Of a stretch of DNA of 64,000 bases, positions 17,065-64,000 are shown one piece after another. The notes beneath the pieces are model-generated. The model had not been told where the DNA came from and did not search any database. It worked only from the letters and a program-made list of their open reading frames with translations. A program made the translations under genes and the position numbers. Position 1 is the stretch's first letter, and every line of letters starts with the position of its first letter. This DNA comes from Psammoneis japonica (lineage: Eukaryota), in NCBI GenBank assembly GCA_008632985.1, contig QPGO01000028.1, forward strand, positions 62,001 to 126,000, in the 5' to 3' direction.

Positions 17065-17149
17065 TAGAATTCACTACAACAGTTTTGGGTATTGAGCATT
17101 GGAACGAAGTTAAACCTACATTTTGTATCCGTGCATTCTTTTGCTATTT

Positions 17150-19604: not shown

Positions 19605-19813
19605 NNNNNNNNNNNNNNNNNNNNNNNNNNNNNNNNNNNNNNNNNNNNNNNNNNNNNNNNNNNNNNNNNNNNNNNNNNNNNNNNNNNNNNNNNNNNNNNN
19701 NNNNNNNNNNNNNNNNNNNNNNNNNNNNNNNNNNNNNNNNNNNNNNNNNNNNNNNNNNNNNNNNNNNNNNNNNNNNNNNNNNNNNNNNNNNNNNNNNNNN
19801 NNNNNNNNNNNNN
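19605..19813. other. Assembly gap (N run)
   Basis: 209 consecutive N. Confidence 1.
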
Positions 19814-19975
19814 AAAAAAGATCTTTTAGTTATAAATCTTAGGCGTGTGTGATTTGCAATCGAGCTATTGGCGCGCGCGCGCGGCGATCGACTCCATAAT
19901 TGCGCGTTCAATGCCGAGTTCAGAGTGCCGAGCGAGACGAAGACAGCAACAAGCAACAATAGACGACTATTCACC

Positions 19976-26717: not shown

Positions 26718-27932
26718 CTAAAAACGTGCCACCTGTTCATCTCCATCACTGTCGGAGGCTTCTTTTTCCGATTCATCGTCCACGCCCTCGTCATTCGCCA
26801 CCGTCTTGAGATGCTTTGCCAGCGTTTCTCGAGTGCCGTCCACGTCGTGTCCGGCTTCATCAAGCTTCCTACGAAGAGTGGAAACGCCCATGCTTTGCAC
26901 ACTGGCTCCTTGGTCATCGGCCCTGACCTGAAAGTCAGCTGCAAACAACTCTTGAAGCAATCTGGGTGATTTGATGGAGCGGAATGCCTCGGTCCTAATC
27001 AGTTTCTCTTTGTCATCAATGAAATGCTTGAGCGCAACTTCCTTGAGCAATGCACAGTTCTTGCTGTCTGCATGGAGAATCATGTCGATTACATTGTCGT
27101 CAGTGATGGAGGATTCTGCCAGCTTCGCTTCTGCGTGAAGCTTGAAACTAGCGCAACCAAACTTGTCGGCAAGATCAAGAAGAGCCACTCCATCTTTGCC
27201 CATGTCAGCATCCGCGGGAAGCTCATCGAGGTGCACGCAGTGTGGAAAAGACTGAAACAGCGAAGGATCGACTCCATCAATCACAATGGCCTTGCCCTTG
27301 TCTTTTCTAGACTCACACTGGAATGTTTCAGCAAATCCTGGAGCCCGCCTGGCGAGAAGGCCCTTGTGCGCCTGGAAGCTTTGGCTGCCAACAGAAAAGG
27401 TGACATCCGAGAAATCCACAAATTCAAACAACTTCTTGACGTCCTTTTGGAGCGTGCCTCTGGGGCGCCAAATCTCAGGCTGGACAAGTGCAATCTGAAT
27501 GTCGGCCTTGACGGTGAGAACTCCATTCTCGAGACATCCCTCTGCAGGATCGAGCACAGTGCTCCGCTCGACAAAGTCTGCCCACCCCCACGCATTGATT
27601 TCTTCTTTCATCACCGTCGACACCATCTCTCTTCCCACCCGAAATGAGAATTTTGCACAATCAGGTTCGCGATCCTGCATGTTTGCCCGTCTCAAAAACA
27701 TGGAGACATGAACAGTGCTTTTGCTGGATCGCTTGCATCCACGGGGATGCACTTCAATTTGCCACAGACGCCCATGGCAAGAAAGCTCCAGTGAGATGAT
27801 TTTCTCTCCACGTTGCTGCGAGAGATTTTCGAAATCTGGGATGCTGACACTGATGGTGTGCTTTGGAGACAGCACTTCACTGCTCCCCATGACCGCAGAA
27901 GCTACGATGATTCGTTCTCACTGTTGCGCCAT
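26718..27932 (-). pseudogene. MATH-BTB copy B, hypermutated with its frame largely intact
   Basis: The homologous ATG at 27932 is followed by TGA at codon 5. The 390-aa ORF from 27890 contains no Tyr. The paralogues' TAG stop reads CAG here (26735-26733). Confidence 0.8.
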
Positions 27933-33419: not shown

Positions 33420-36400
33420 GATCAGTTGCAGGAAATGCCTCTTTTCCATCCCACCATCTTGGGCAAGACAACGCCCACTCCTCCACCAACAAGCATGTTT
33501 TTCTGACAATGCCGAAAGGTGTGTTTGGGTGATGTGCCCTCCATTTGCCAATGCTGAAACCAACCGTTCTCGCTCATTTCCCTTTTGATGTTGCTTTGCT
33601 TCTTGCATGTTCTCCCAAAAACAACAACCTCTTTTTTGTCATCACTCAGAAGGAACCCATGCAATTGCATTGGAAACAAGCTGTTGGTTCCACCATCATT
33701 TCTGCATGTGACACGTGCAAAGTCATGCCATTGCCCGGTCTTGTGACAGTTGGGGTGGGCCCAAAATCTCAACTCATGTTCCGCCTGCAGATTTGACTTG
33801 GAATGCACCATGACGTGCCCGTCTGATTCCCCGCTGGTTGCGATGGCACAAAAATTCTACGACGTCCTCCTCCAAATGAGCACTCCATTCCCTTTTCATC
33901 TCCAAGGTTCCGGTGCACTTGCAGCAGGTTTTGTCAACAGGGTCAACTGCAAACACAGCATGCCCCAGGTCATGGTGCAATGTTGTGCTGGGTGGCAAGT
34001 CATCAGTGGCAAGGGGGTGGACAATCAAGTCGTTTGCTCTCTCCAACAGACTTTGCTCATGCAGTTTGGTCGCAAGCTGATGGGTGAACTCTTCTTTGCC
34101 TTGTGAGGCTTGGCAGGTCCGGCTGGGAAGCTTTGCCCATTTCTTTAGAGACCAGACTCGCCTGTTGTGGCATCCCATCCAGAAAATGTGCCCAGTTGAT
34201 GAAGAGCAGTTGTCAAGTGAAGCAAATCATGGAACTTTGATGTTTTCCATCCATGTGTGCCTTTGCCACAATTGATTGTGCTGCGCATCTTGAACATCAA
34301 AAGAACAAGGCAACATTCAATGTCGACGTGATTGGTTTGCAAGCACAGGGAAGAACCACAGCTGCAAAAGGAGTGGAACAACAACAATTTGTTGAGCAAA
34401 AGCAACAGATGATCCACATCGTCACAGTCCACTGAACGACTGGCCAGCTCTGGGTCAAGGCTCTTTAGCCTTTGGCAGAATGCACAAGGCAGTTTTTTTT
34501 CAATTTCTGAGTGGACCAATGGTTGGTCATGAGAAGTTGCCTGTGTGTGCAGTGACTGGCGACGGTCCGCACAGCATCTAAAAATGTTGGAAACAGAGGA
34601 ATTCTTGTCATTGGGGATGCAAAATTGTTGATCCAGGTTGACATTTCTGGTTTGCATCCACACAATGTTGTGGCATGGATGAGCTTGAGATTTTGTCAGC
34701 TGCAAAATGCAAGGACACATGTGACGGTGATGTTGATCCTCCAGAAATTCATTGTGGACAGGGCCATTGTGACTGCATTCTTTGTTTGCTTGGGGTTTGT
34801 CAACCAAGGATGCAGAGGCATGCATTGGATGATCCTCAGCAGATGCTTCCTCTTTGTCAGTCTCTTTGTTGTTGTCTTGTGGATTTGGTTGGTGTTCATT
34901 GCAATTGCTGGCTGAATCGTTGTCATCATCAAGCAAATCTTTGGGATTGTCAGCAACGCGTTTGCCTTCTTTGTGTGCACGACCATCATTGTCTTCTTCT
35001 TCATAATCACAGTCCTCTTGTGGAGGCTGGTCATCAAAATTTGAGGCTTGTTTTTTCTTTGTCTTGTCAAAATCTGGATGGCAACGAAGAAGGAGCATGC
35101 TCCGTCCCTCCGCAGTCTGACCCACCAGCGTTGTTGCAAACAGCTTCCCCATCTTTTGGTCACAGCTCAAACCGGACAAGGTGCAAAAGCCATTTTGTGC
35201 AAGACAACCGGTGGAAACATTGTTCTCTGACCGGGTCTGCACCACTGAGATCCAAATGTGCAGTTTGCCAAATTGTTCAAATGGCCTTTGGCAGAGTCGG
35301 GCAAATCATCGACAATGACAGAGAGCGTCTGAGGGGCTGTGCCGCCTTGGAACATGTGCATTGGATCGGGGGACGCAAACCCAAACATGCCCTGACGATT
35401 GTCTCCCATCCAAAGAGGAATCATTGAGTTGTCAACCGTGTGTTGGCCAAACACCTCACGAAGTTTGGAGGAACAAATGTTCATGTGCCGGACAACTGCA
35501 CTACGACGCGTTCCAGCCCTAGGTGGGAGCTCGTAGTACTGACGTGTGACAACAATAATTTTTATCATCCGTCGTATGTTTCGTACGTAGATTTCTACGT
35601 GTGATATATAAAAAAAATTGTCCAGACTCGCTGTTTTGCGAAGCCCCAGACGTTTTATATAACAAATTTATAGAAACAACAATGCGCCAGTTACATTCTT
35701 CAATGTCTGAAGAATGTAACTGGCTAAGTAAAAAATGATGTACTTCAATCATGTGCGAGTTTGTGCGTTCGCAAAATTGCCTCATTTTCTGTTGGCGATC
35801 ATTGACCTTTTAATTACCGTATAATTTTACTACGGAGCTCGCACGTAGAAGTCTACGGGCCCAATGTCACACGGATTCCCACCTACGTCTGGAACGCGTC
35901 CTACGTCCCTTGGAACGGATTGATTCAGCCACAGCCTTGGGCATCACTGCGGCTGTTTGTGATTCAACGAACAGATGCCACGGACTGTCAATTGAACCGG
36001 GTGGTGGTCCAAGAGCTGCAGCAGTCAAATGCTCCATCACTTCCCGAGAAAAATGCCTGCAGCAGTGCAACAGCTCATCACTGCATGTCCAGGAGGTGTG
36101 ACAGGCATGACTGATGCGGCAGGAATTTTTGCGGCCAGAAAGACGGCCGGTCACTTGTGCGGCATTAACAGCATCACCCAACTTTGTTGCGCTGTGAACA
36201 ACAATGCGCTTAAAACAATGCTGGTTGCCAAGTCAGATGCAGCAGATGGGAGGCAATTCTTGCACTTGAGTTGCAGGTGCAAGAAGGACAGACAAAATGC
36301 GGTGATGGTTTCTGACATTCAACCCAAAAACGGGGGTTCTTTGTTTTGTAACCCTTGCATTTTGGAACAAATCCAAGAGGATGCCATGCTTCAAAATGAT

Positions 36401-40969: not shown

Positions 40970-42166
40970 CTATTCGTCACCTTCACTGTCGGAGCTTTCT
41001 TCCGACCCATCGTTCATGCCCTCGGCATTCGTTACCGTCTTGAGACGCTTAACAAGCGTTTCTCGAGTGCCGTCCACGTCGTGTCCGGCTTCGTCGAGCT
41101 TCATACGAAGAGTGGAAACGCCCATGCTTTCCACATTAGCTCCTTCTTGGTCAAATTCTCTGAGCTGAACCTCAGCTGTAATTAGCTCTTGGAGCAATCT
41201 GGGTGATTCAATGGAGCGGAATGCATTGCTCCTCGTCACTTTTTCTTTGTTGTCAATGAAATGTTTGAGCGCTACTTCCTTGAGCAACGCACAGTTCTTG
41301 CTGTCTGCAATGAGAATCATGTCGATGACGTTGTCGTCTGCAATGAAGGATTCTGCCAGCTTTGCTTCTGCATGAAGCTTGAGACTAGTGCAACCAAACT
41401 TGTCAGCGACATCAAGAAGAGCCATTCCATCTTTGCCCATGTCAGCATCCGCGGGAAGCTCATCGAGGTACACGTAATGCAGAAAAGACTGAAACACCGA
41501 AGGATCGAACTCATCAATCACAATGGCCTCACCTTTGTCTTTTGTAGACTCACACTGAAAGATTTCTGCAAATCCTGGAGCCCGCATGGCGAGAATGTTC
41601 TTGTGAGCCTGAAAGCTGTGGCCACCAACAGAAAAGGTAACATCCGAGAAATCCATAGATTCAAACAACTTCTTGACGTCCTTTTGGAACGTGCCTCTGG
41701 GGCACCAAAGCTTGGGCTGGACAAGTGCAATCTGAATGTCGGCCTTGACGGTAAGAACTCCATTCTCGGGATGTCCCTCAGCAGGATCGAGCACATTGCT
41801 CCGCTCGGCAAAGTCGCTATACCCCCAACAATTGAACTCTTCCTTCATCACCGTCGACACCGTCTTTCTTCCCACCCGAAATGAGAATTTTGCGTCAACT
41901 GGTTTGCGATCCTGCATGTTCACCCGTCTCAAAAAGATGGAGACATGAACAGTGCTTTCGTTGGATTGCGTGTCTCCACGGGGATACACTTCAATTTCCC
42001 ACAAATGCCCATGGCAAGAAAGCTCCGGCGAGATGATTCTATCTCCGCGTTGCTGCGAGAGATTTTCAAAATCTGGGATGCTGACACTGATGGTGTGCTT
42101 TGGAGACCACACCTTTTTACTCCCAATGACTGCAGAAGCTACGATTCGTTCCTGTTGTTGCGCCAT
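40970..42166 (-). CDS. MATH-BTB/POZ protein, copy C
   Basis: Intact ORF from ATG 42166 (MAQQQERIVAS), with the same domains as copy A. Confidence 0.88.
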   Translation of the reverse strand: MAQQQERIVASAVIGSKKVWSPKHTISVSIPDFENLSQQRGDRIISPELSCHGHLWEIEVYPRGDTQSNESTVHVSIFLRRVNMQDRKPVDAKFSFRVGRKTVSTVMKEEFNCWGYSDFAERSNVLDPAEGHPENGVLTVKADIQIALVQPKLWCPRGTFQKDVKKLFESMDFSDVTFSVGGHSFQAHKNILAMRAPGFAEIFQCESTKDKGEAIVIDEFDPSVFQSFLHYVYLDELPADADMGKDGMALLDVADKFGCTSLKLHAEAKLAESFIADDNVIDMILIADSKNCALLKEVALKHFIDNKEKVTRSNAFRSIESPRLLQELITAEVQLREFDQEGANVESMGVSTLRMKLDEAGHDVDGTRETLVKRLKTVTNAEGMNDGSEESSDSEGDE

Positions 42167-42299
42167 GGTGAAGTCGTCTTTATTCTCGCGCTGTCGTAGC
42201 GACACATAGATTTTGGAATTTTGATGCGAAGTTTTTGCGAGGCGAGGCAGTGTGGATGGACGGACGGACGGACGGTGAGAATGTCAGCACAAGCACATG

Positions 42300-48701: not shown

Positions 48702-50295
48702 TGTTGTTTCTACTTATGGATGCAACCTGAATGGCTTTGTCAACAGAACAAAGGCGACTTTTTTCGTTTTATGCGTTTGAGTTTGAAAAAGACTTTTTGC
48801 AAAGCTTTGGCAGCTCGGCATTCCCAATGTAGGGAGGGTTTGGTATAAATGGGTTGACCCTGCATGATGGATGGATGCGGTGAAATGAAACTGTTGACCT
48901 TCTGCAGAACCCACGCATCATGCGGCGCTGTAGGTAAATAAATTTGGAAATCCAAAATTGCACTGCGTGAAATTTCGGACAGTGCGTACAGACGCGGGCG
49001 CGACACGCACACACGACGCGACACACGTACACGTGTGACGCGTGACGCACCACAGGGACAATGGAGCAAGCTCCGACCATGACATGGTGTGCAAACGGTG
49101 ACGAATACTTCGTGCCCATTTGATGCCCCATCCCGAAACAAAATCCGTGGACATCATCCATGGCTGCAGCAGCTTCCTGTCTGAGCAAGTCTCCTCGTGA
49201 TTGCTTTCACAAGATGGGCGAAATTTTTGGCTGTGGTGCAAGATCAACAAATCAGAGCCATCAAAAGTGTCAAGTGGCAGCAGTGGCAGCAGGATCCAAG
49301 GTCCATCATCGACTGCCACAACAAACAAAACAAAGAATGCAGCACTGAGGCAAGGTCATCTTTTTGCTAAAGAAACAAGCAAGTCAGGCTGCTGCTGCTC
49401 CCAAGCAAACTCCTGCAACAGGGGGAGGATCTGTGCGTCGTTGTGGGTGTCGATGCAAAGAATCGCATCATTGTTGCCCGATTCTTCTTCAAGACATCAT
49501 GGAGAACCAAATGGAATCACTGCTTCAACAAAAGAAACATTGCAACACAACAAAGCCAACAAAAAACTGGAAGAACGCACTGTGCTCCAAGAGGCTGAGA
49601 TTTGGTTTCATGATGAGAACGGGTGCACACCCACAATGAAGAGCACATGATGCAAAGCAATTGTCGAGGGGAGAGATTTGTCAATCTCGGTGGAATGTTC
49701 CATCTTTGCCAAAATGGCCACTTGGTGCATTTCTTTCATGGGGTGCAACTCCTCGTGACAAAAACAAGAGAAGCTCTGCTGCACTTGGGACGAATCTGCA
49801 ATTCCTGCTGCTGCCACTCTGAACACTGCTGCCACTGTTGGCAGAGCTTCACTTGGCAATCGCTCCACAATTGCAGCTGAACAACTGCCACTACACACAG
49901 CATGTGATTGGCATTTGCACATCTCAATTGTTGGGCAAAAGTCAGTGATTTGACAACCCCCCGAACACCAGCCCAGTTTCTGCTGAGTCGCATGCGCTGC
50001 ACGCCAAATTCTTTGACACCCCCGAACACCAAAACAAGCACATGGGCTGAGTCCTGGCTCCTTGGGGAACCAGCTGAATTGGTGAATGATTTTGGCAATG
50101 GATTGAACACCACAAAGGCCAACACTGTGGATCACTTGCCAGCTCAATGAGGGCCAATGGGTGTCATGTGATTGATGCAGTCGCGTGCAAACAAGGGGAG
50201 GTTTTTGTGCACTTTTTCATCATCTGTGGGCGCAACACTCAAATTGGATCTGGTGCTGTGTGGGCAACCTCAAGCAGTGACAGTTTGTTGGGGCT

Positions 50296-50484
50296 TGCAA
50301 GATCCAGCTTGAGATGACTTGACACAAAACAGGTTTTGAGAGAACCAAGAAGGGGGAGCCGATCACCGCAATTGCTGATCGGAGCTGACTTCTGACAGCC
50401 TCTTGAACATCTGATGCATTGGTTGATGTGCACATGTCAGAGGGGGCACACTCGGTCATGGAGTGCATGTGCCCATGTCACTCA
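50296..50484 (-). repeat. 3' LTR (hypermutated)
   Basis: Aligns to the 5' LTR once the MITE is removed; contains no TA. Confidence 0.9.
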
Positions 50485-50599
50485 CTCTTCCCCTCCATGG
50501 TGCAAGAATCATGTGCACCATTGGAACCACTTGACTCAAATTTAAACTCCAATGCGCACGGAGAAGGGAACCCAGATGTTGGGAAGAAACCCTCAACTC

Positions 50600-53500
50600 T
50601 GATGCGGCACATGCTTGCAGCACCGAAACTGTCCCACTGGCGTGGACTTGTGCAATTTGAAACTGACCGCGAGCTTGAGCTTCGAGCTTTGCTGGATCCA
50701 CAGACTTGATTGACACATCTTTTCCCACAAGATAATTGCAAGAATGACGCTTTGCGTTCTGTCGTCACAGGTTTTTGTTGATGAGCACTTGACGGTTGGC
50801 TTGAATGGCAGCAAGATTGGAGAGAACAGAGATGGATCCAAAATCACATCATGTTGGAATGCCAAAGCTCCACTTGAGACACCCATGGACCTTGAATGAG
50901 AGCATCGTAATGCAAAAGAGGCTGTGGCAAGGGCATCATCCATGATCTGCTTGGCCTGTTGAATGTTCAAAGGTGGGTCAGCAGCAACCACAGTTTGCAA
51001 AATGTTGGCCACTGTTTGGTGCATTTGTTCACAAATGGAGTTGGCTGCAGGACTCCGTGAGGTCATTGGAGCATCTTCGACACCGGCCTGGTTCAATGTC
51101 ACCTGAAATTCCCAACCAATGAATTCACCACCGTCATCATGGATGCATCGATTTGGTCTGGGACAATGAGCCAACCAGAGGTTGCGGAACTTGTTGGTGA
51201 TGTGTTGAGAAGTTTTGTTGTCAATGCGCACAAGTTCAGTCAGGCCAGTGACAGTGTCAACACAAGTGAGGGCACTGAATTCAATCTCTTGATCTTGAAT
51301 CGGCATTTTCCATGGCCCAATGAGATCAACTGCCACTTCCGACCATGGAGCTGATGGTGCTTGGTGTTCAGGCAATTCTCCATGTCCCGGACCAAGTTGT
51401 TTGAAGTGTTGACAGGTGTCACACACAAGCTCATTACAATGCCAATGCAATGCAGGATGACACATGTGAGTGCAAATGCTCTTGTACAAACAAACAACTC
51501 CACAATGGTCCAATGCACGATGATGCCATGTGAGCATGTCAGGCAACAATGCAGTCGGAGTGCAAATTTTCCATGCTCCAGGCAGATCATTCAAGTGCAA
51601 ATGACAACACATGATGGGATGATGGTTCACAATCTTGACCACGAATTGCTGCGGGTTCTGTTGTCTCTGCTGATTCAGTTGCTGGTCCTCAAACTGGAGC
51701 TGTTGCATCCGTGACATCTTGGTGGGACTCGGCATTTTGTTCAATGTCAGACATTTTAAAAAGCATTCAAACAGCTCAGGCTCATCAAGCAGAGAAGAAA
51801 AGGTGTGAGACTCATCAGAGGGATCAACAGGAGCATGGCAACACTTGAACCTGCAAGTGCCCAACTCCAATTCTTCTTCTTCCTTGGCCTTGCTCAATTC
51901 ACTGCTGTTTTCAACTTTTCAAAATGAATGATTTTTCCTTTGCCTTTGCCACTTGGCCCAAGGCTCTTCCCCTCCAAAGGCAGACCCACATGTGGAAGAC
52001 AAGAAAAACAATTGGTGAGCATGTTGTCAGATGCCAGCAAAGGACATGCTGTGCATTCAAGGTGCAAAAGGTGAGATTTTTATGGTCAGTGTGAACAGCA
52101 ATGTTGGCACCACTGAGCAACATTGTGCGAAATTCTTTGAAGCACATGACAACAGCAAGGAGTTCCTTCTCCATGGTTGAACAGTTGTGTTGAGCTGCTG
52201 AGAGCTTTTTGGACCAATGTGCTGCTGGTTTGCCATCTTGGGTGATGGCTGTGCCCATCTGGCAGTCGGATGCATTGGTGCAAACATGGAATGGTGGGTT
52301 GTGGTTGGGACAGGCCATCAGAGCTTCCACCGCAATCACTGCTTTTATTTTCTTCAAATGCTTTCTGACACACATCTGACCAATGGAACTGGCTCTTGCC
52401 TGTCAACTCCCTGACGACGAGGCCACATGTTGCAACAACAGGTCACTGCACCAAGAAATGAGCAAAGTTGCATGGCATTCCGTGGAGGCTGCATCCAGGG
52501 AACAGCTTCAACCTTTTTCTTCCACGGTTTGACGCCAGTTGGAGTGAGCCAATGCCCCAGGAAATCCATCTCTTGGACACACCACTTGCGTTTTAATGGG
52601 TTGACTTTCAATCCATTCTCCTCAAGATGATGCAACACCTTGTCAAGATGAGAGAGATGACAATCAAAGTCAGCATCAAATGCGCCAATGTCATCGACAC
52701 AAGTTTCAACATCCAAACCATGTGTGATTTTCTCAATGACAGACTGAGCAATGTCTGGAGCTGGCTTCAATCTCACGGCCATGTGGCAGTGTTGGAACTT
52801 TCCGCAGGGAGTTGCAATTGCAGCCAGCTCCTTGCTTTTGTCGTCCAATTTCAAGTTGCAGTGGAACATGGTGAGATCAAGTTTCGTAAAGAATTTGAAG
52901 CCCGCCATTCACTGTGGCACATCTTGGACAACCGGCAAGGGATGGACTTTCTGCTTGAGCACCTCGTTTGGTTCACAGAAGTCAGACACCCATCGCACTT
53001 GCCCGTCCTTCTTTGGAGTGATGAAAGCACCGGCTGCCCATTCTGCAGGTCCACATGGTCGCAAGACTCCCAGGTCCACCAAATGCTTCAGCTCCTTTTT
53101 GAATGCTTCTTCATCAACTCGAGCAACAGGAAAAGGTTTTGAGTGACAGGGTGCAGCATTTTCTTCCACCTCCAGGTGTGCCTTTTCATGAGGACAGTGA
53201 CCCAAAGTTCCGTCAAACAAGGTTGAGCATTTCTCCAACACCACTGGCAGCTTCATCTTTTGCTCTTCTGTCAGGTGATCCAGGTTGCAAACCACTTCCG
53301 CAGGATCCATTGCTTTGCACTTGGCATCCAGCATGTGGCCATCACACCCATCATCATGTCCACAGTCTGATTTGTCCTTGCAGTCTTCATCAAATTCATC
53401 CATCTGATCTAGAGCAACATGCCAGTTGCAGGGTTTTGATGATGAGGCTCCTTCATTGGAATTGTGTGGTCCAGCCAATGCAGAGTTCTTGCATCGCAGT

Positions 53501-53900
53501 TCAAGTGGAGTCCAATCTTGTCCAAGAAATCTCAACCCAAAATGACATCATGCGCACATGGAGCACAAAAAACATGAGCGACACAACCGTCAACCCTCCA
53601 AGTCTCTTGTCGAATTCTGGCAGCACAGTGTGTCACTCAGAGCTGCCCAACGACCCGATTGGAAAGGACCTGCTGTGGATTGAAAAGCTTGCACTCCATG
53701 TTCATCAATGGATGGCACGGCCCCACGAGGTGAAACTTGAGAAGAGATCACAGTGTGAGAGCCACCAGAATCAAACAGCACACGCATCTCATGATTCAAT
53801 TCATGACATTGGACTGATTTGGCAACAAGCAGTGTTGATGGGACCAATGCGGTGCATGAAACTTGCAAACCCATTTTGGGGAGAGGAACATCACATTCAA
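50600..53900 (-). pseudogene. Gypsy pol (protease, RT, RNase H, integrase), frameshifted
   Basis: RVLFDSGGSHT (PR); FITPKKDGQVRWVSDF, TKLDL and ETCVDD (RT); FHVCTNASDCQMG and EKELLAVV (RH); WSEVAVDLIGPW, IHDDGGEF and PAANSICE (IN). Confidence 0.92.
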
Positions 53901-55679
53901 GTGCATCTTGATCAAATGCGTCCCCCTCTTCATTCGTGCAATTTTCTGCAGTGTCTTCAAATTCAACAGGAGACAATTCATCAGGATTTTCAAAACAATC
54001 AAAGGCAAAACTTCCAGGCACATTTTCAGGAACAATGCACTCATTTTCAACAAATGCTTCACATGTGGGCAATTGGGGGCATTCAGCTCCTTCTTCTCAG
54101 AACTGCCAAGGAAACTGCCCATCTGGCTGAAACCTCACCACACCTCCACAACGTGGAGGGCCTCGCCCGATCATGTCGAAATGGCGCACATCACCATGAG
54201 GAGCTTCTTGAGCCTGATTGTCATTCACATCATCTGCTTGAGCAGCACAACGGTTGGCCTGACCTTGGCCACCACGATTGTCATTGTTGCTGCAACAATG
54301 CTGGCCACCACCACCTTGGTTGCCGCTGTTGTTCTGATTTCCATTGTTGTTGTTGTTGTTGCAATTGTTGCAGCAGGTGCCACACCCTCCTTGGTTTTGG
54401 TTGCCATGACCACCAAAGCGTCCACCACCACCACGGCCAGGACCACAGCCTCCTTGGAAGCAACCTCCACCCCTCGACCTCCACCGCCACGACCACCACC
54501 TCGACCGCCATGGTTTTGAGGTCCACGACAGTTGGGGTCATTTGGATCATCACAACACTGACCCCATGCATGTCTTCTATAATGCCACGAGACCAGACAT
54601 GGGTCACTGGCCTTCGGTTGACCCTTGCCATCCTTCTTGTCACGGTTGCCCTTCTTGTTGCTGGTGGTGGAGCTCCCTCCATTGCCATTGTTGGACTTGC
54701 GTTTCTTTTCTTGTTGTCCTGGCCATTGGCAAATGCCTTCTCATTCCACCATGGAATCTGGGACAAGATTCTTGCCCGCACGAATGTGGGGCTGCTGCCA
54801 GGTCAAAGGAAAGGTCGTGCAGAAGATGACATTTTTCTGCTCTTGCTCTGTGAGTTCAGGAACGGTTCCAGGCAAGCGGTCAGCATGACAAAATGGGGTT
54901 TCCATGCAATCAACATGAGTTTCAGATTCCGTGGAGTGAGGTTTCTTGCAAGCAGGCAAGCGCATCTTCTTCGCATCCTGAGCTGTCGGCTTCACACAAT
55001 GTGGACAGTGGGCCGAAATGGCTTGATTAAACCGAGCTGCCATCCTCTGATTCTGTTGGATGCCCGCTGTGATGTTCTGCCATTTTGCCTCCACAGCACC
55101 TTGTGGGCAATTCTCAACAGCATCAAAAAGTTATGTTCCGGCATCACAATCCAACTGTCTTGCCACCTTCTGAAAGCGCTCCTCCACGTGCAACAGTGGC
55201 TCAATTCCGCGTTCTCCTGCAAAAACAGGATGCATTTTTGAGAGTTTAGTTCTGTCATCAAAGGTTTGAGCAAGTTTCACTTCTTGCAATTCAGAGTCCA
55301 CAAATTTGGTTTTATGCTCAGTGCATGCTTTCTCCAAAGCTTCTTGATGCATGACGATGAACAATTTCAGCGATCAAAGAATCAACAGCCCACACAATGA
55401 ACGAAACAACGTGCTCCCAATTGATCCACACAACGAGAACAATCAACAACCAAACAACAACAAATTCAAGTGCAGCAATGTGGGACTTGAGTTCAAACAA
55501 ACGCTGCTCTGAATCGCCCCAATTTCACGAGCACAATTGTGCTGAGGCTCCGATTGATTTCCAACAAAATTTTCTGCACGAGCACCCAGACAAGCTTTCT
55601 CTCTTTTTGACAGCACTCTGTGCATTGTCATGAAATGGACAACGCAACAAGCAAGCTACAACAATGACTGTAATTACAG

Positions 55680-56196
55680 TGCAAGATCTAGCTTGAGATG
55701 ACTTGATAAAAAGGTTGTGAGAGAACCGAGAAGGGAACCGATCACCGCAATCGCTGATCGGAACTGACTTCTAACGGCCTCTTGAAATTTCAATGGGAAT
55801 CATTCGGGTCCTCAGAGTCATCACGTAGAAATTGTGTAGGACAGTACCAAAAATAATTATAATGAGTCTGTCCATCAGTCCGTATATGAATATCAACTTC
55901 TCGGCAAATCAATTGAAATGCTATCTGATCGACGGTATTTTGATTCACATAGTGAAGGCCAATGCCGTCGATCAGATAGCATTTCAATTCAGTTCCCGAA
56001 AAGTTATTAGCTCTAATCACTCTCTCGTATGACATTGTGTACATTTCTACACAATTTTGTGTTTTTCCTTATGTAAAATATTAATTATGACTCATGCGAC
56101 ATTTTCGAATGATTCCTATTGTAATGCGTTAGTTAAATACATAATATATCAGAGGGGGCACACTCGGTCATAGTGTACACGTGCCTATATCACTCA
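55680..56196 (-). repeat. 5' LTR (unmutated, carries a MITE insertion)
   Basis: On the + strand it reads TGCAAGATC...CACTCA and retains its TA and CG dinucleotides. Confidence 0.9.
55791..56121. mobile_element. ~331-bp foldback MITE inserted in the 5' LTR
   Basis: 16-bp TIRs CAATGGGAATCATTCG / CGAATGATTCCTATTG with 1 mismatch. Absent from the 3' LTR. Central 29-bp inverted repeat at 55911-55939 / 55961-55989. Confidence 0.8.
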
Positions 56197-56533
56197 GGGC
56201 TTGACTTGCCGAAAAGTCATTAGGGCTTATATCTTATTTCAGTGTGACATTATTTACATTTGACCATTCGGACATTTTCCAATGATTTACAGCATTGCTG
56301 TCTATGCGAATTTCATCTAAGAAGCGACCTCGCTCAGCGCGGTTCCGTCCGGCCTTCGTACGGGACCTTTCGAAAACCACTTGCACAAACATCACAAAAA
56401 TCGCACACCATGACGAGTGCCGCCGACGCGTCGTCGTGTAGCTCAACAACCGTTTAGCATTATCCAATGCCACTAATAGACTCGGTTACTCTTTCATCTC
56501 GGATCACTGGGGTAGCTTCAGTGTTGTCACAAA

Positions 56534-59500
56534 ATGTCACAACCATTGAAAAAAAGGCGTCGGAAAGTGCATGGCAAATCTTCTCCGTCAAACAGGGTCA
56601 CAGTCGATTGTGAGCTCGATGCACTTCATTTGACCATTAAGTCATGTACAGCTTGTGAGAATCAGATCTGTGCATGCATGGAAAGCTTTGTTGAGCTGGG
56701 TTGTGCTGGAAAATGTGCTCTTTGTGTCTCTTGCTGCGCCCGCTCCGTCGCGTTGAGAGGTTGTGACGTGACGTTGCACTGCTCGGTGTGCAGCAGTGAA
56801 ACAACTGACTTTGCCATGCATTCTGTTCATTTTGAGCAAGGACATGGTGGTGTCAAACCTGTTCAACAATCCTGTGCTGGTGCAGTCACTCCTCCGAATG
56901 CCAAGATGGATCCGGTTCGTCATTTCATGAGCAACAAGGAAACACCGGACCAACTCTTCGGAGGCAACGTCCATGTTACGTCATCAAGGATTCAAGATTA
57001 CGCCTCATTGACATTTGCTGGACACAAAGAGGATGGCGACATTGCTGTTGCATCAACTGTTCTTCCCACTTGCTCGCAGGAAGATTGGACGAGCGAAATG
57101 AAAGCATCGATTGAGAAAATCTTCAAGGTGTTTCACTCCATCCTCGTCACCCTTTGCCCGACAAAAAAATTTGATCCGCTGGAGATGTCGAATCGCTCAA
57201 CTTTGACAAACCTTGCCCACAATCAGAAATTTGTTCTGCTCAGATGTCTTCATGCCCTTGGGCATGGAGAAATCTTGGACGACAACATTCCCGCGGAGCA
57301 GGTTCTCAACCAGTCGAAAGCCTGGGACAAGCACTTGAAATGTGTCTTTGCTGCTGCTGACATGCCACTGCACCTTGGGAATGAACATGCAGGCGTCACA
57401 AAAACAATGGTTGGGAAGCAGCTGCTTGCGCAAGCAGCCCCAAGCACCGTCCACTCCGTTTTGAACAATTGTGGGATGGCACCCGCTAGAAGCACCGAGA
57501 ACAAGGGAATGCATGACCGAGTGCAACAACTCATCAAAGATGGAATTGATTTTGTGCACTTTTCAAAGCACTGCCACTTGACTGTGCATTTTGACAACCT
57601 TGGGCACAAGAGTCGTGGTGAAAATGTGGGACACAAACAGTCCATTCTCCGTGTTGTTGTAGAGACTTTGGTTGACGAGTTGAAGAAACACAGGATCTAT
57701 GACAAAGACAACCCACTCAGTCGGAGCAGTGAGACCTGGTCTCAGGAGATTCTGAAACCAGACTTTCCTGGTGCAAAAGAAATTGCGACGCCATCGGCAA
57801 AAGCGGCAGACCGTGTCGGCCAAGAATTGCTCCGTTTGCTGGAACATATGGTCAAATTGGAGAGTGACAGACAATTCGTGTCTCATGAAGAGGCAGAGAC
57901 CATTGTTTGGCTTCTAAAGAAGAGGACGGCCCATCGGGTGGAGGCAACCAAGCGCCAACGGCAGAAGACGACAACGAGAAAAGAACGTTGCTGGACATTA
58001 ACCTTGGAATCGAAGACCTGCCACTTCAGTTGGACTTGTCAACGGCTCATGCAAATGAGTTGCTTCTGTTGCACTCTATTTTTGTTCAAGAGCTGATCCT
58101 TGCCAATGGAAAGGATGATTCCGAAATTGCAAGTTGGGGGGGAGAGCCAACAATGAAACACGTGTCCATCACGAATGCATGTGATGGCGATCCCGCCATT
58201 GTCATGAACAATTTGAAGCGACAAAAAGCCAAGTTTGCGAACTGTTTTATTGCACCGCAGGGCTTCCACCTAGAGATGAAAAGCTTGAAACTTGATGGCC
58301 TGCTGTTGGGTCCGTGCCTCGTTGAGGAATTTTTTATGCTGCTTGGCCGCGACACTCCGGGCAAACTCAATTGGGCACTGAATCCCGGCGACCCGCGTCA
58401 AGCTGAAGAAGGACATGAGGCAATTCTCCATGCAATCTTTATAGACGCGACACGAGGCTGTGTTGAAACTCAAGCAGACGATTCTGATTCTGTGGAAGTT
58501 AGCCCCGTCGATGTGTTGGACCACATTCTTGGACGAGCTTTGAAGTGTCCAGCAATTCTTCGTTTGCTGGTGCATCTTCAATTAATTGTGACATTTTTTG
58601 TGCTGCAGCATGCCGAGAAGAATGCAGATGCGGAGGACTGTGAACTAGGTCTGAGGTTGATGGCAGTCTTTGCTTCAGCAGGACATGCAATTGGGTGCGT
58701 CTCTCTGACAGCCGACCAAATTCGCGATTTCTACTGTCACAGTGAAGCTCAGAAGAAAATGTGGATGCTGTCACTCTTCCGCAAAACTGTGAATGGCAAG
58801 AACCAGTGTGGAGACCGCTTTTTTGAGAACATTGTTGGTCATGCCAGATTACATTCGGGCAAGCATGTGTACAGCAACGATGACGCTAAGCACTGCAAAC
58901 GGATTCGCGAAGTCGCTGTGGAATCTAATAAAAATCAAAGCTGCAGGAAAATCAACAATGCTGCAGCAGCAGTCACTGGCCAAGAGGGTCCTCGTCAAAT
59001 GAAAGTGAATAAGTGGTTCTGCGAGTTATTGCTGTATCTACGAGATGTCAATTACTTTGGCAATGGTGCTCCGCGCGTCATCCCCGCCAAGCCATTTTCG
59101 AAACGTGGTCCGGTGTCAAGCTACCGTGAAGTTGAAGAACTAGACCTTGTTGGACCATCCGGGAGATCTGGTGATCCTCAGAGCTGCTTCATATTGTCCA
59201 CCGGGGAAAAGCGATTCGTTGAATACTTTGAAAAATTTATTGTAGATGGAGATCCATCTGATTGCTCTCGACCCGAGACGGGTGAAGAAGGAGTGGATCT
59301 TTCATTGATCCCACCAGAAGCGGACAAGAAGGACACCGCATTACAGGACGAGCTGAAACGATGCTGTTCCGAAGACTACAGCTTTCTGATGACTAGGGGT
59401 GTATACACTGTCCCAGAACTCGACAAGGAGCTTGCACATGTGAAAGGTGAAATAGAGTCCGAAAGATGGAAAGCAATCATGGCGGCGTACCCAAAACCGA

Positions 59501-59901
59501 TCAAAGGGAGTTTGAACAAGGCATCAAAAGTCCACCGACTTATGCTAGGAAGACAATCAATGCGAACAATAGATCCGAATTGGCCAGAGTTACGAAAAGA
59601 AGAGTACAAGGCAAATCGACAGTCTGAGAGGGTTACTGAAAATGCAGACTTTGAAGCAAAACTGAAAGCCGAGATCGATCAAGATATCTTCTCGGTTAAT
59701 CAAAATGTCCGTTCCCAGTTCATACGTAAGTATCCAATTGAATGCAAGCAGCGACATATTGATCCGTCTGCGGCTGTACCGCCCTCCCCTCCGTCTCGGG
59801 ATACTTCCTCCGCATACTCTGTACGATCGTCTGATGCATCTACTCGGTATGGGTTGACGGGATTTACTCAATCCCAATCCCCTGGCTATCAATTTTTCTA
59901 A
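56534..59901 (+). pseudogene. Academ/DUF6589-like transposase with one frameshift near 57905
   Basis: Overlapping ORFs 56534-58096 and 57907-59901. Motifs VHFDNL, ACDGDP, PQGFHLEMKSL and GDRFFEN occur in the order I recall for Academ-type DDE enzymes. N-terminal Cys cluster. Confidence 0.6.
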
Positions 59902-59977
59902 AGTAGTAGTATATTGATTCATTCTAGTAGTGTACTTTAGATATTGAAATACTACATGCTGTCCATCCAACAACTGC

Positions 59978-61189
59978 TCATAATTCTTCGATGACTTCAG
60001 GGTACGCTCGAGGCTTTTTGGATGGTTTCCTACGACTCTTATTGAAAGCATCAATGTATTTCTCAACGGCAGATGAAACCAAACCATCCTTGCCAGCAAC
60101 TAATGGGTAAAAGTGAAAAGCATCATTGCTTCTTGTTTCACTCCTAGTGACAGCCTTGAACGCTTGCATTACAGGCTTTATATCGTCCCCTGAATGCGTG
60201 ACCAACAGCAACTCCGGCTTTTTGGCAGGAAGGTCGATTGTATTTCGTTGCCCGCCATCCGTCTCGGAAGGTTCAATCCCGTTCAAAACCAAGCACACAA
60301 CACGCACACACGGTTCATTATCAAGCCGATTTGGATAGTGTGTCGTATCAGCAGCAGTTCCCGCTTTCTTCAACAGTGCGTGAATCGAATCAATCGCAGT
60401 TCTGTCCGCCTGTTGGCTGAGAGAAGCTGCATTCGTTCCCATCAGATGCAAAGTGTTTCGAGATTTTTTTACCTTTTCTGCATCTTCTACCAAAGCCAGA
60501 CGTTCTTCTACTGGGGAAAAAAGTGATGTAGCTTTCAGATTGAAACTCGATCTACCGTCGTTGGCGGGGGCGCTTGTTTGTTCCACAGACTCCGACGCTG
60601 GAGTTCTGCTTCGACGCTTTCTGCTCTTGCCTCTAAAAAAAACCTTTGACGATTCTGACAAACCGGCTGATGTCAGTCTTTTGTCAGATACACTGCTAGG
60701 TGGCTCTACCTGTTGTTCTCCGGCGGTATCATTGTCTGTAGCGACTGATGCTTGTTGCGCGACCGGTTCTGGCACGGGTGAAACTGATCGCGGTAATTTT
60801 GCAGTTCCGATGGTTACTTGCGCATACTTTTCATGAATAGCAGCCTTTTGCTCATTCAATACGCGAATCCTTCGTTCATATATGTCTTTTTCCCATCGTG
60901 GGAACTTGCCCCAGCGGTTCTTCTCGATCTTCTGCTCAGCGGCATCCATTTTGACGAAATCTCGGACCTTCCGAAAAACGTTTTGCCAATTAGCATCATA
61001 ACCGAGAATGTGACGTGGTATCTCGCATCCATTGTATTTCAAACCAAGTACTCGAACGATTGAAAGGTTGATTTTGGGATCAACAAGCATAATTTGCCTC
61101 TCCTGGGTCATGTTATACTCCGGAGCCGCATTTTGTGTGCTTCCATGAGTGTCGCTATTCAACCGCGGCGCAATCGATGAAACCGACAT
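59978..61189 (-). CDS. Unknown 403-aa protein inside the TIR element
   Basis: Intact ORF with normal composition and basic NLS-like patches (KSRKRRSR, SRRKPSKKPR). It lies tail-to-tail with the transposase, inside the TIRs. Confidence 0.7.
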   Translation of the reverse strand: MSVSSIAPRLNSDTHGSTQNAAPEYNMTQERQIMLVDPKINLSIVRVLGLKYNGCEIPRHILGYDANWQNVFRKVRDFVKMDAAEQKIEKNRWGKFPRWEKDIYERRIRVLNEQKAAIHEKYAQVTIGTAKLPRSVSPVPEPVAQQASVATDNDTAGEQQVEPPSSVSDKRLTSAGLSESSKVFFRGKSRKRRSRTPASESVEQTSAPANDGRSSFNLKATSLFSPVEERLALVEDAEKVKKSRNTLHLMGTNAASLSQQADRTAIDSIHALLKKAGTAADTTHYPNRLDNEPCVRVVCLVLNGIEPSETDGGQRNTIDLPAKKPELLLVTHSGDDIKPVMQAFKAVTRSETRSNDAFHFYPLVAGKDGLVSSAVEKYIDAFNKSRRKPSKKPRAYPEVIEEL

Positions 61190-61664
61190 ATTTCAGCAAA
61201 TCTAAAACATGAACATGTACTTGAATACTGTTAGATCGTGTGTGCAAGGTTTGGTAGTTGTTATCATAAAAGTTATAGCGCTACACGACGACGCGTCGGC
61301 GGCACTCGTCATGGTGTGCGATTTTTGTGATGTTTTGTGCAAGTGGTTTTCGAAAGGTCCCGTACGAAGGCCGGACGGAACCGCGCTGAGCGAGGTCGCT
61401 TCTTAGATGAAATTTTTCGATCGATCGCCACCAGATCGCCACGAACAATTTTTGATGGATATTGATTATTATATATGGATGAATGTAGCATTTTCTGATG
61501 TCCGTTGAAAGCTTCCGTTTGAGCCAATCCTCTAACGGTTTTCCAATCCCTCTAACGGTTCTATGATTCTTTTTAACGGTTTCCGTTATTGTTTTCTAAG
61601 GATCAGTCCTCGCCACAATGTTCTCGTGTTCTTCACATTTTTGCATGAACAACGTTCTTTGATT

Positions 61665-64000
61665 ATGATTGCGTCTCGTTGGAGTTGTTGGTTTACCATC
61701 GCCTTTGTGATTGTTTTGCCCGGGGCAGTGCTGGGGAATTCATCCTTTTCAGCAGACGATCATGACGAAGAATCGCCTTATTTCCTGGGCGGGCGCAACG
61801 TTTCCAAGACGAAGGTGCAGGAGGAGCGCAAGCTTTCATCGCCTTGGTGTGCCAGCGATCCCTCGTCTCTTACCTTTAGCGACGTGTCTAGCATGCTCTC
61901 TGATATGGCAAATGGTCATTCAACCTTGGTGTCTGGAGGCGTGACTATTCCAAGTACCATCATTATGAAAGTGTTGACTGGCCAGATTGACCCAGAAGAC
62001 GATCTTTTCGCCCAAGTCATCGAAGCCTTACTAGAAGCCTTTCTTGGAGATCTCGACGTGGATTTGGAAGAGGATTCGTCCGAAGAGATGGACGTTCAAG
62101 AATTCGATTCGGAACTGTCGAACGAAGACTTGGGTCGGATTTTTGACTGGCTACAGTTTGAGGTGGAACAACGAATGTTGCCGTTTTGTTGGCGGCAAAC
62201 ATACTGGAAGTCGCCGTGGGATGAGTGCAACTATGGATACTCTTCCCATTTCGCGGAACTAGAATGCCTTCAAAACTGTGATTCAGATCAAGTGTCTTGT
62301 GGAGATTACGCGTGCGCCTTATCGGAAACAATGTGTGGCCTCACAGTTGCTGACCAAGTCTGGTCCACTTTGGTAGTTGTAGCAAATGCGATCACAGGAC
62401 TTACGGCATCTAGATTTACGGATGAAATTGATGACCAATTTGACGGTATAGTTGCTGGAGCGAGTACAAGTGCAGCCCAAAAAAAAGGCATGCTTGCTGG
62501 TACTCTACGATATATCGTCAGCAAGCTTCAATCCATAGCACCTGACGGAAAACAGTTGTCCGATTTTGGAAGCTATAGCGCTTATATAAGATATGCAAGA
62601 ACTGGCACCACGAAACGAAAAGTGTTTGCAGCGGTACGACAAATGGGTCAGGATTTTCTGTGTTTTCCAACTCTTCAATAGGTAGCCTAACACGCTTTTC
62701 TTTGTCAACAGGGTAAACTCGGGGCAATTGCCTACAAGCTTTTGCGCTTCTATCGATACCACTTCTCTGTACGTTCACTAATGAAAAGGAAATACCAATT
62801 CGTTTGTTGCACGCTTCAAGCTCATTTCGTTTTTTTTGGTCCAGTGCTCTTTTGACGAACTTTACCCCGAGCTTGCCCAAGAACTCAACTCGCGTTTTGA
62901 TGTGGATACAGCGTCGTATATCAAAGACCGCTGGGCCATTGTTGAACTGGACAGGATGGACAAGGCGCTCAATTTTGGCATAGCCTCATTGGCTCTCTCG
63001 ACGGTTGATTTGTTGGAACAAACTGGTGTTCCTTCCGTGATTAACGCCTTCGCCAAACCCAAGTGCAGGACGATCGTTCCTTTTCCTTGCACCGCTATCG
63101 ACAATACTTGCACCCCGCCTATTGATTTTAACGTCGTGAATGGTTGGTCAATGGATCATCATATACGCGTCATGGGGGACATTGACGGGAACGGTATCCC
63201 GGACATTGTGGGTTTGTCGTGCGGTGCTGTGAATGAGTGTTGGTTTACTCGCCTCATTCCCTTCACACCTTTCTTTTCTTTATGCATAGATTGGGTTTGG
63301 AGGAACGGGCGTCCACGTCGCTGTAGGAAAAGGTAAGGAGGGAACGACGTGATAGACAAGTGTATCGAGCATTTCCGCGTCTTCCTTCTTCTCACTCGAC
63401 CTTGTTTCAATTCCTTCTTTAAGGTGACGGCAATTTCTGGTTGATCGGGAAAGTTGTTAACGATCTTTCTTGGGATCAGGGATGGAGGATAGAAACACAC
63501 AAACGTTTTGTTGCCGACGTAGACGGAGACGGAAAGGATGATCTCATTGGTTGCGGATATAGCGGCTGCTACGTTTGGAAATCCAAAGGAGATGGATACT
63601 TTGAGGATCCCATACGGGCGACCAAAGATTTTGGGGTTCAACAAGGATGGGAAGGAGACACGTACCCACGATTCATTGCGGACGTGAATGCCGATCAGCG
63701 GGCCGACCTGATTGGATTTGGATATTCTGCAGTGTATGTGAAGCTAGGTCAGGCCGACGGAACATTTCGAGACGGCCCTTCGTTCAACAAATACACGGAC
63801 AACCAGGGTTGGGGGGGTAACACTGATTACTTGCGAATTATGACCCGCGCCAACAAGGATCTCTACTCGGACATTGTCGCTTTTGGATATCACTCAACGT
63901 TTACGGCCGTCGGTACGTCGAACACCCAATCCAGTTTTTGGGACAAGGGAGTTTCCTACAACGGTTTTAGTGCCAGGAGTGGATGGAGAGAAGAAAAACA
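61665..64000 (+). CDS. Multi-exon secreted protein with FG-GAP/VCBS-like repeats (partial)
   Basis: Signal peptide from ATG 61665 and a Cys-rich segment (FCWRQTY...CGDYAC). Later exons carry GDIDGNGIPDIVG, ADVDGDGKDDLIG and ADVNADQRADLIGFG. Exon boundaries are not fully resolved. Confidence 0.7.

Follow-up and report, generated by a model that had tools for sequence, protein, structure and literature searches.

The window analyzed here, 64,000 nucleotides of the Psammoneis japonica assembly GCA_008632985.1 (contig QPGO01000028.1, positions 62,001 to 126,000; positions below are counted from the first letter of the window), contains a 5.1-kb unit bounded by terminal inverted repeats (TIRs) at 56309-61414, which carries one open reading frame on the plus strand (ORF1, 56534-59901) and a second on the minus strand (ORF2). 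Within a bounded tract covering much of ORF1, TpA dinucleotides have been converted to TpG or CpA, whereas CpG has decayed to TpG or CpA far more slowly. Three independent lines of sequence comparison, with sister copies, with conserved positions of the protein family and with related elements, indicate that the TA deficit is a mutation of this copy. We consider it highly probable that the tract was hit by TpA-directed A:T>G:C hypermutation after the copy had split from its closest sisters.

Results

Extent of the tract and direction of change

The deficit is apparent in the encoded protein. Reading across the frame change of ORF1, four of the 833 codons in 56534-59029 specify tyrosine, compared with 12 of the 290 in 59030-59901 (Fisher p = 5e-5), just as the first-pass annotation of this DNA had counted. 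Up to 59029 both histidine (5.2% vs. 1.0% after it) and cysteine (4.0% vs. 1.7%) are in surplus, these being the products of TAY>CAY and TAY>TGY changes (Y, pyrimidine). A maximum-likelihood change-point on TA/(TA + TG + CA) sets the limits of the TA-poor tract at 56519-58845, with support for the left edge at 56495-56547 and for the right edge at 58804-59006. TA makes up 20 of the 460 TA, TG and CA sites within the tract and 270 of the 1160 outside it (twice the log-likelihood difference, 2ΔlnL, 99). About 91 TA would be expected in the tract; its observed/expected (o/e) ratios are 0.13 for TpA, 1.61 for TG and 1.41 for CA. The first-pass annotation had placed a switch to normal TA content near 59030; such a switch exists, but it lies at 58845, approximately 180 bases further left. 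An inner step at 57660, where the TA index rises from 2.1% to 6.8%, is weakly supported (2ΔlnL 6.2). The same annotation rightly remarked on plenty of CpG in the TA-poor part: 96 CpG remain, at an o/e of 0.71 as against 1.02 elsewhere in the element. The CpG-rich string that it quoted lies at 56736-56752.

Sister copies were represented by contigs of two sequencing runs of the same sample, X1 and X2, placed on 55900-61900 at 80% likeness or more (488 contigs from X1, 37 from X2 and none from a third run, X3, with X2 cover absent over 57307-58713, gaps that speak neither for nor against editing); the variant figures refer to the best 40 of 1113 variant places and the best 12 of 62 indels. Among these 40 places, the window has TG or CA where the sister has TA in 20 and TG or CA where the sister has CG in four; the window has TA where the sister has CA in three and CG where the sister has CA in one, with the 12 others stemming mostly from one poorly matching contig. 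One sister contig could be listed fully, over 56699-57020, and its 13 differences comprise nine of TA type, two of CpG type and two others. Nine of 11 ancestral TA and two of 18 ancestral CpG have thus changed there, and nine of the ten places with G or C in the window and A or T in the sister lie at TpA. Over 56519-57221 the losses amount to 17 of 21 ancestral TA vs. three of 34 CG (Fisher p = 7e-8), with at most seven further differences in two contigs falling outside the listed places. By comparison, the nearest sister contigs on the 3′ side (59961-60581) differ at one of 613 bases, a stretch in which the window has 20 TA and at most one of 21 TA changed. Divergence outside TA and CpG is approximately 0.2-0.6% on both sides (2/322 and 1/613).

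These differences translate directly into the protein, where the sister codons specify tyrosine at codons 46, 68, 82 and 180 and the window has C, C, H and C; they also specify threonine for alanine of the window five times, and isoleucine for valine or methionine. The protein family tells the same story when columns are called conserved if at least half of the homologues share the residue. Within the tract one of ten conserved tyrosines is retained (the window reads H, H, F, H, Y, H, F, C, L, C), compared with three of three outside it, whereas other conserved residues are kept alike in both parts (165 of 307 and 57 of 112; Fisher p = 0.014 and 0.008). Four of the Tyr>His/Cys columns (57632, 58072, 58639 and 58696) fall in the part of the tract without listed sister variants. 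Among relatives of the element, six loci in another organism, found with the single protein P0019 as query, have a TA o/e of 0.4-1.0 in every 1-kb window and a CG o/e of 0.5-0.7.

It could be argued that the N-terminal two thirds of the protein are natively poor in tyrosine and TA through codon or amino-acid usage, and the Cys-rich, zinc-finger-like N-terminus of all homologues as well as the somewhat low CG o/e of the relatives (0.5-0.7) would fit such a view. However, the sister copies carry TA and tyrosine at the edited places, the homologues mostly contain approximately 2-5% tyrosine (at most 1% in P0026, P0032 and P0037) as opposed to 0.4% in the window copy, their conserved tyrosine columns have become histidine or cysteine in the window, and the related loci are without any TA-poor stretch. 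Sister copies with the same Tyr-poor 5′ region would have spoken for native composition; sisters and homologues alike proved to be neither Tyr- nor TA-poor, and, provided that the sister contigs do not stem from a different organism, we find this explanation scarcely credible.

Two observations concern other members of the family. At 58929, 59010 and 59488, all among the 40 listed of 1113 places, sisters have CA where the window copy retains TA, from which it follows that family copies were edited at differing places. Three homologues with 0.5-1.0% tyrosine (P0026, P0032 and P0037), of which P0026 and P0037 have raised cysteine and P0026 raised histidine, may, judging by this composition, themselves have been edited, whether in this genome or in others.

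Edges of the tract

The left edge is ragged. Over 56458-56523 there are edits at 56458, 56469 and 56523, all at RTAY in the sister (R, purine), amid six unedited TA; unedited TA are interleaved up to 56513, and past 56523 nearly every TA is edited. Editing begins 8 bases inside the inner end of the TIR, the start of the tract as a whole being put at 8-70 bases inside it and at most 76 bases before the ATG, and the left TIR retains at 56359 a doubly eligible GTAC, that is, one offering TAY on both strands. The right edge (58804-59006) is similarly mixed, with the last sister-verified edit at 58918 and unedited TA at 58850, 58870, 58887, 58926 and 58929; homologue P0002 has tyrosine where the window has cysteine at 58894-58896. 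Only three RTAY survive in 56600-58999, whereas from 59000 on 40 of 112 RTAY, RTGY and RCAY sites are RTAY. No editing is seen in the left TIR, in the last third of ORF1 on its 3′ side or in ORF2 (one change at most in 613 bases holding 20 TA), and with both TIRs spared the early suggestion of a bounded domain, rather than the whole element, as the target is confirmed. Towards the left, 0.86 kb of unedited DNA separates the tract from an older edited domain at 49030-55653, which makes simple contiguous spreading from that neighbor unlikely. What is seen in this one copy is a tract with ragged edges; it does not show a moving front. The first-pass annotation had spoken of a mutation front.

The possibility that these limits reflect recombination deserves consideration. 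In such a mosaic the element would have been edited in full or over a longer part and its 3′ part and left TIR then restored from an unedited sister by gene conversion or gap repair, or else a clean copy would have received an edited 5′ part. Repair of DNA transposons draws on sister copies, four internal-deletion joints typical of abortive gap repair occur among the sisters, and sisters edited elsewhere (58929, 59010 and 59488) imply that edited and unedited templates coexist. Conversion should nevertheless switch cleanly, whereas edited and unedited TA are mixed over approximately 70 bases on the left and 200 on the right, and the edits at the left edge occupy doubly eligible RTAY sites only, as low-dose editing predicts. 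Furthermore, the low divergence outside TA and CpG on both sides (2/322 vs. 1/613) means that the 5′ part does not derive from an older lineage, and two separate conversion tracts would be required. The ragged edges and equal background divergence favor editing in place over a recombinant of old and new copies, and we regard the mosaic as improbable.

Two further candidates for the limits were considered and rejected. Identity of the tract with the segment missing from deleted sister copies fails by edge offsets of 270-390 bases at best, and 56458-58918 coincides neither with the parts shared with deleted copies nor with any listed deletion. A 15-nt inverted repeat lies near both edges (56528-56542/58586-58600); as a boundary it was judged to be chance, being one of 22 such pairs and 250 bases off the right edge.

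TA and CpG loss across the window

We profiled the dinucleotides of the whole window in 1-kb steps and divided it by two-state segmentation. The window-wide o/e ratios are extreme (TA 0.27, CG 0.60, TG 1.52 and CA 1.55), and the segmentation returns ten normal segments and nine TA-poor domains, the latter totaling 40.6 kb. Normal segments have a TA o/e of approximately 0.5-0.8 and a CG o/e of approximately 1.0-1.2, apart from one short island (0.96 and 1.56), while seven of the nine domains have a TA o/e of 0.02-0.08 and a CG o/e of 0.21-0.47. The transposon tract, delimited here at 56519-58846, is among the least decayed domains (TA o/e 0.13, CG 0.71). In all nine domains the combined deficit of TA and CG approximates the combined surplus of TG and CA (e.g., 458 vs. 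416 and 599 vs. 574; 118 vs. 97 in the transposon tract), so that both palindromic pyrimidine-purine steps have been converted to TG or CA via transitions.

The two steps decayed at very different speeds. In the young tract the sister data give first-order decay constants of 1.66-1.70 (TA) and 0.09-0.12 (CpG), which differ by a factor of 14-18. Ratios derived from composition in the nine domains are smaller (1.6-5.4); they peak in the two domains with the least decay and reach their minimum where TA loss is saturated. TA conversion is fast, as the first-pass annotation had proposed, and saturates first (17 of 21 TA vs. 3 of 34 CG lost). Its further proposal, that TA conversion is decoupled from CpG decay or earlier than it, holds as regards speed but not as regards place: the ranks of TA and CpG decay across the nine domains correlate strongly (Spearman 0.87) and CpG loss without TA loss is never seen in these domains, so the two processes are co-located rather than independent. 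CpG loss does in this sense track TA loss by rank; the per-site speeds in the young tract are 14-18-fold apart. In the old domains the CG o/e of 0.21-0.47, together with the mass balance, amounts to loss by CG>TG/CA. Diatom repeats are heavily CpG-methylated (PMC5124317), and loss of DNMT5a depletes methylation and de-represses young transposable elements (PMC9998398), as far as the available parts of these papers go. Slow deamination of 5-methylcytosine (5mC) would be sufficient for the CpG part of the decay.

The window also contains three MATH-BTB paralogues, approximately 80-83% identical and each matching Pfam MATH_2 and BTB: copy A at 19853-21199 on the plus strand, copy B at 26718-27917 and copy C at 40970-42283 on the minus strand, alongside an old MATH-BTB relic at 9510-10304 (66-68% identical). 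Copy B has lost 31 TA, 14 of them privately and 17 in common with copy C, whereas 11 CpG were lost and 11 gained, and the initial impression that this copy keeps many CpG was accurate; these are net counts only, as parallel or shared TA loss in copies B and C blurs the three-way parsimony (17 apparent "gains" in copy A). Since MATH-BTB copies were hit, duplicated host genes are targets as well.

Sequence context and strand

A pyrimidine follows the adenine in 19 of the 20 verified edits, comprising all 16 on the plus strand and three of the four on the minus strand (binomial p = 4e-4 against a baseline of 0.58). The TA that survive mirror this preference. YTAR, which offers no TAY on either strand, accounts for 72 of 171 surviving TA in the TA-poor domains and 149 of 998 TA in normal DNA (odds ratio 4.1, p = 1e-14), and RTAY for 14 of 171 and 296 of 998, respectively. 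The strand-symmetrized survival ratio by the base after A is 1.81 for A, 1.29 for G, 0.77 for C and 0.40 for T, with TTAA 5.3-fold enriched among survivors and ATAT reduced to 0.14. The editing preference is therefore TAT > TAC > TAG > TAA. The same signature is present in eight of the nine domains, the exception being 20025-20982 in MATH-BTB copy A (YTAR in one of 12 survivors), which may not be an edited tract.

With respect to strand, A>G falls on the sense strand in 16 of the verified edits and on the other strand in four. We rejected this bias as proof of transcription coupling: seven of the 16 plus-strand edits sit where the plus strand alone offers TAY, so that the context rule explains part of the excess. 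Where either strand would be eligible, the edits divide 9:3 (p = 0.15), and in MATH-BTB copies B and C the TG excess lies on the plus strand of the window, which is their template strand; taken together, these results do not establish coupling to the coding strand.

The same counts bear on a route through RNA, in which the transcript would undergo ADAR-like A-to-I editing, be reverse-transcribed and replace the DNA, a scheme with which the 16 of 20 edits of sense-strand A>G would agree. Against it, the remaining four edits lie on the other strand, the element is a TIR DNA transposon without a reverse transcriptase, the tract begins before the ATG and borders on parts of that very ORF that are unedited, and the MATH-BTB paralogues show their excess on the template strand. 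ADAR prefers a 3′-G, and the 3′ order found here (T > C > G > A) differs from that preference. The preference for a 5′ U/T neighbor is ADAR-like according to the available part of the preprint by Mettrop et al. (bioRxiv 10.64898/2026.01.13.699255), but we give the RNA route next to no weight.

The transposon and its ORF1 protein

The left TIR (56309-56450) is unedited and retains TA at 56318, 56359 and 56439. The right TIR (61272-61414) matches it at 97% over arms of 142/143 nt, with one indel and three mismatches, all at the inner end; the description of the TIRs as nearly identical was thus correct, and with at most possibly one of the four differences being of TA type they are uninformative on editing. 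ORF1 spans about 1120 codons and encodes a Cys-rich, RING-like N-terminal part followed by a predicted RNase H-like, DDE-type core. It is interrupted, as first noted, by one frame change, placed at approximately 57908-57930 by homologue alignments, and contains no in-frame stops. ORF2 (59978-61192, minus strand, 404 codons; TA o/e 0.51, CG 1.11) yielded no homologue, no ESM Atlas match and no Pfam match at 0.01 or better. No further copy of the element was found within the 64-kb window, a search of metagenome_contigs with an exact 29-nt TIR stretch gave no matches, and no direct repeat was found at the flanks of the element, although a palindromic AATT at both ends could belong either to a target-site duplication or to the TIR. 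In the public contigs of one sample the element occurs as many distinct variants, with up to seven distinct contigs per place, and sister contigs display four different internal-deletion joints (56726>59309, 57032>58720, 57221>59855 and 57225>60209), three of them found in both X1 and X2. Class II elements typically show such variants and internal deletions.

A full HMMER search with the first 520 ORF1 residues retrieved 53 proteins at E ≤ 0.001 (21-37% identical), several of them 900-1136 residues long and encoded on 4-5-kb contigs; no names were found for any of the 53, cluster look-up included, and a word-index homologue search with the second frame returned P0002 only. DUF6589 matched below threshold in three of 11 homologues, the same lead emerging from the ESM Atlas (score 0.94), and a PDB sequence search with a profile of the homologue alignment returned a chance-level match only. 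We therefore turned to a structural model of homologue P0004 (28% identity to ORF1; predicted local distance difference test, pLDDT, 73). In VIA-align its core (residues ~237-782) is closest to the P element transposase (Z 8.4, 355 aligned), ISCth4 (8.2) and Hermes (8.0), followed by retroviral integrases (Z 6-7.4), Tn5, Mos1 and RAG1, while the N-terminus resembles RING/U-box fingers (Z 5-6). Three acidic residues stand out in the family: the aspartate at codon 354 of the first frame, invariant (16/16) and on the first core strand; D99 of the second frame, aspartate in 11 of 12 and just past the fourth strand; and E243 of the second frame, glutamate in 10 of 10 and on a later helix. The window copy retains all three, which form a putative catalytic triad. 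The model thus supports the term "transposase gene" at the level of fold for this unnamed family, and the element is, by its TIRs and the DDE-transposase-like fold predicted for the homologue, a class II DNA transposon.

Other features of the window

Between the transposon and the older edited domain lies an unedited, AT-rich spacer with a repeated hairpin element (55657-56308). It includes a near-palindrome at 55895-56005 (54-nt arms, 83%), and the summed contig depth at 55900-56100 is approximately 7768, compared with 61 in unique flank, which marks this near-palindrome as a widely repeated short element; it is without TA depletion. Further left, a 402-base island at 35502-35903 (TA o/e 0.96, CpG 1.56) stands within a long edited region and is delimited exactly by 27-nt inverted repeats (35502-35528/35877-35903, 89%). 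It looks like an unedited element resembling a miniature inverted-repeat transposable element, either inserted after editing or too small to be a target. Direct repeats at 12922-14187 and 16833-17982 (83-86% identical), with normal TA, lie on both sides of the edited domain 14362-16916, and an assembly gap of 209 N occupies 19605-19813, just upstream of MATH-BTB copy A.

Discussion

The polarity of the sister differences, their concentration at TpA and the low background divergence on both sides together argue for hypermutation in place. Several points weigh against this account. Among the 40 listed of 1113 variant places there is no TA-type place in 57388-58917, so the evidence for the middle of the tract consists of composition and the four conserved-tyrosine columns. 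All runs come from one sample, which is probably the source of the window's own assembly. Over 56519-57221 the CG o/e is approximately 0.85 in the sister and 0.78 in the window, so that about half of the apparent CpG deficit of the tract is ancestral; conversely, its CpG loss would be underestimated if the sisters had lost the same CpG in parallel. As regards the protein, a Pfam scan of both ORF1 frames found no families even at E 10, Foldseek gave no match to the P0004 model at E ≤ 0.001, and the fold match itself is middling (Z ~8, on a homologue of 28% identity). Lastly, at several of the listed places no placed contig has the window's own letter and all show that of the sister. This would be expected of an assembly or sequencing artefact in the window, but contigs drop rare variants, and the absence is undecisive either way. 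The window letter is present in contigs elsewhere, for example at 56523 (the other letter at depth 486 of 543), the flank contig has no differences in 516 bases, the changes obey a tetranucleotide context, and the same signature extends over nine domains and 40.6 kb with TA and CG balanced by TG and CA. An artefact is accordingly extremely improbable.

In the mechanism that we propose, the copy would have split from its closest sisters, at approximately 0.2-0.6% background divergence, before hypermutation took place. Hypermutation then most probably struck a tract of some 2.4 kb (56458-58918), which opens directly within the inner end of the left TIR and takes in three quarters of the transposase gene, counted from its start; some 80% of the TA in this tract became TG or CA. 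It is plausible that this occurred through deamination of adenine in DNA to hypoxanthine, which is read as G, by a predicted TadA/ADAT-like enzyme requiring a 5′-T and preferring a 3′ pyrimidine. Such a deaminase would probably act on either strand and in kilobase patches, while CpG decay would be the ordinary slow result of 5mC on silenced repeats. Candidates for setting the limits of the tract include a transcription unit, a chromatin or small-RNA domain and an exposed single strand. The strength of the process can be gauged from approximately 0.83 changes per TA nucleotide vs. a background of 0.1-0.3% per lineage, a rough, several hundred-fold excess given that the background rests on one to three differences.

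The consequences for the gene are considerable. At least six of ten conserved tyrosines are now histidine or cysteine, a family-wide arginine (15/16) has been replaced and the frame has changed, with the amino-acid effects of editing being Tyr>Cys/His, Thr>Ala and Ile>Val/Met. Conversion of TA to TG or CA cannot create a stop, since TGA arises from in-frame TAA only, and long open frames will therefore persist in several phases while the proteins are ruined. For the same reason an open frame is not evidence of youth; the description of the transposase as young stands, but by virtue of its similarity to sister copies. A more far-reaching interpretation, which we put forward as doubtful, is that a TAY-specific DNA adenine deaminase left this tract behind in a single processive episode or a small number of them, having been recruited to the 5′ end of an active transposase gene in an AID-like manner (coupled to transcription or single strands). 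The gene would have been crippled within approximately 0.2-0.6% neutral divergence, before CpG methylation left its marks, and the process would represent a programmed, adenine-based counterpart of somatic hypermutation and of repeat-induced point mutation (RIP), serving as first-line genome defence in diatoms.

This locus offers a polarized before-and-after comparison of a process that acts in kilobase patches and is able to stop within a gene. It also provides a relative clock: TA is converted approximately 14-18 times faster per site than CpG, and editing thus comes early instead of resulting from long-term methylation. The sequence rule, under which editing strikes TAT and TAC far more often than TAG and TAA and almost entirely spares TTAA, constitutes a biochemical prediction for candidate deaminases. 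For annotators there is a warning, as edited transposons retain long open frames because stops cannot arise.

Among known systems, the CpG decay of methylated repeats shares with our domains the loss of CG to TG or CA in the same silent regions and explains the share of CpG in the mass balance. However, it cannot explain TA loss and is the minor component here (2/18 or 3/34 CpG vs. 9/11 or 17/21 TA). RIP converts C:G to T:A, mainly CpA to TpA, making DNA AT-rich and creating stops. It is named for Neurospora and other ascomycetes in the available part of PMC9998398. Our domains resemble those of RIP in the dinucleotide-specific transition hypermutation of repeated or mobile DNA and in the sharp edges of mutated domains beside clean genes, but the direction is opposite, with TpA depleted (o/e 0.13), TG and CA enriched (1.61 and 1.41) and a polarity of TA>TG/CA that leaves GC near 48% and creates no stops. 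The family is multi-copy, and the segment that the deleted sister copies have in common with this one does not coincide with the tract.

Deaminases offer further parallels. Enzymes of the AID/APOBEC kind, which underlie somatic hypermutation and kataegis, are motif-bound and leave kilobase-scale tracts. Our tract likewise starts close to the 5′ end of a gene and seems to fade further along it (TA index 2.1% and then 6.8%; 2ΔlnL 6.2), but the target is adenine rather than cytosine and strand coordination is weak (16:4, and 9:3 at doubly eligible sites). In the natural substrate of TadA/ADAT the edited A follows a U (U33-A34). The site read by bacterial TadA is U-A-C, and early adenine base editors favored Y-A-C. 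These contexts lie near the T-A-Y preference found here; such an enzyme would have to act on chromosomal DNA in patches.

Our literature searches, in the sources they reached, returned no diatom description of TpA erasure or of a RIP-like process. To our knowledge, TpA-directed hypermutation of invading DNA has a single description, in a chlorarachniophyte preprint of 2026, and we know of no enzyme or targeting rule for it. According to the available part of that preprint, integrated giant-virus and virophage DNA of Bigelowiella natans undergoes TpA-restricted hypermutation, nearly all changes being A>G/T>C, all of them at TpA and yielding TpG or CpA, in bounded regions with a more than 1000-fold excess over background, at a rate of about 6e-7 per site per generation; some of the mutation-accumulation lines acquire these changes in real time, and ADAT2-like DNA adenine deamination is proposed as a defence against invading DNA (bioRxiv 10.64898/2026.01.13.699255). 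The words "CpG," "diatom," "trinucleotide" and "context" do not occur in the main text of the preprint as available to us (bioRxiv 10.64898/2026.01.13.699255). The likeness to our window is extensive. Changes here are also mostly A>G/T>C (9 of 13 TA>TG/CA, two of CpG type and two others in the contig with a full listing), TpA is where the mutated base lies (nine of ten G/C-gaining places in that contig), and the tract is bounded (2ΔlnL 99) and far above a background of 2/322 and 1/613, its several-hundred-fold excess being of the same order as the figure given in the available part of the preprint. There are also clear differences. Here a TIR DNA transposon was hit, as were duplicated host genes (MATH-BTB), rather than viral inserts, and the pattern is read from sequence rather than observed in real time; in addition, no more than a part of one element is covered by the tract, CpG decay joins in within the older domains, and TAY is preferred on the 3′ side. 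The preference for TA followed by T or C is possibly new, and the CpG companion, the partial cover of a single element and the TAY rule are additions to what has been described for the B. natans system.

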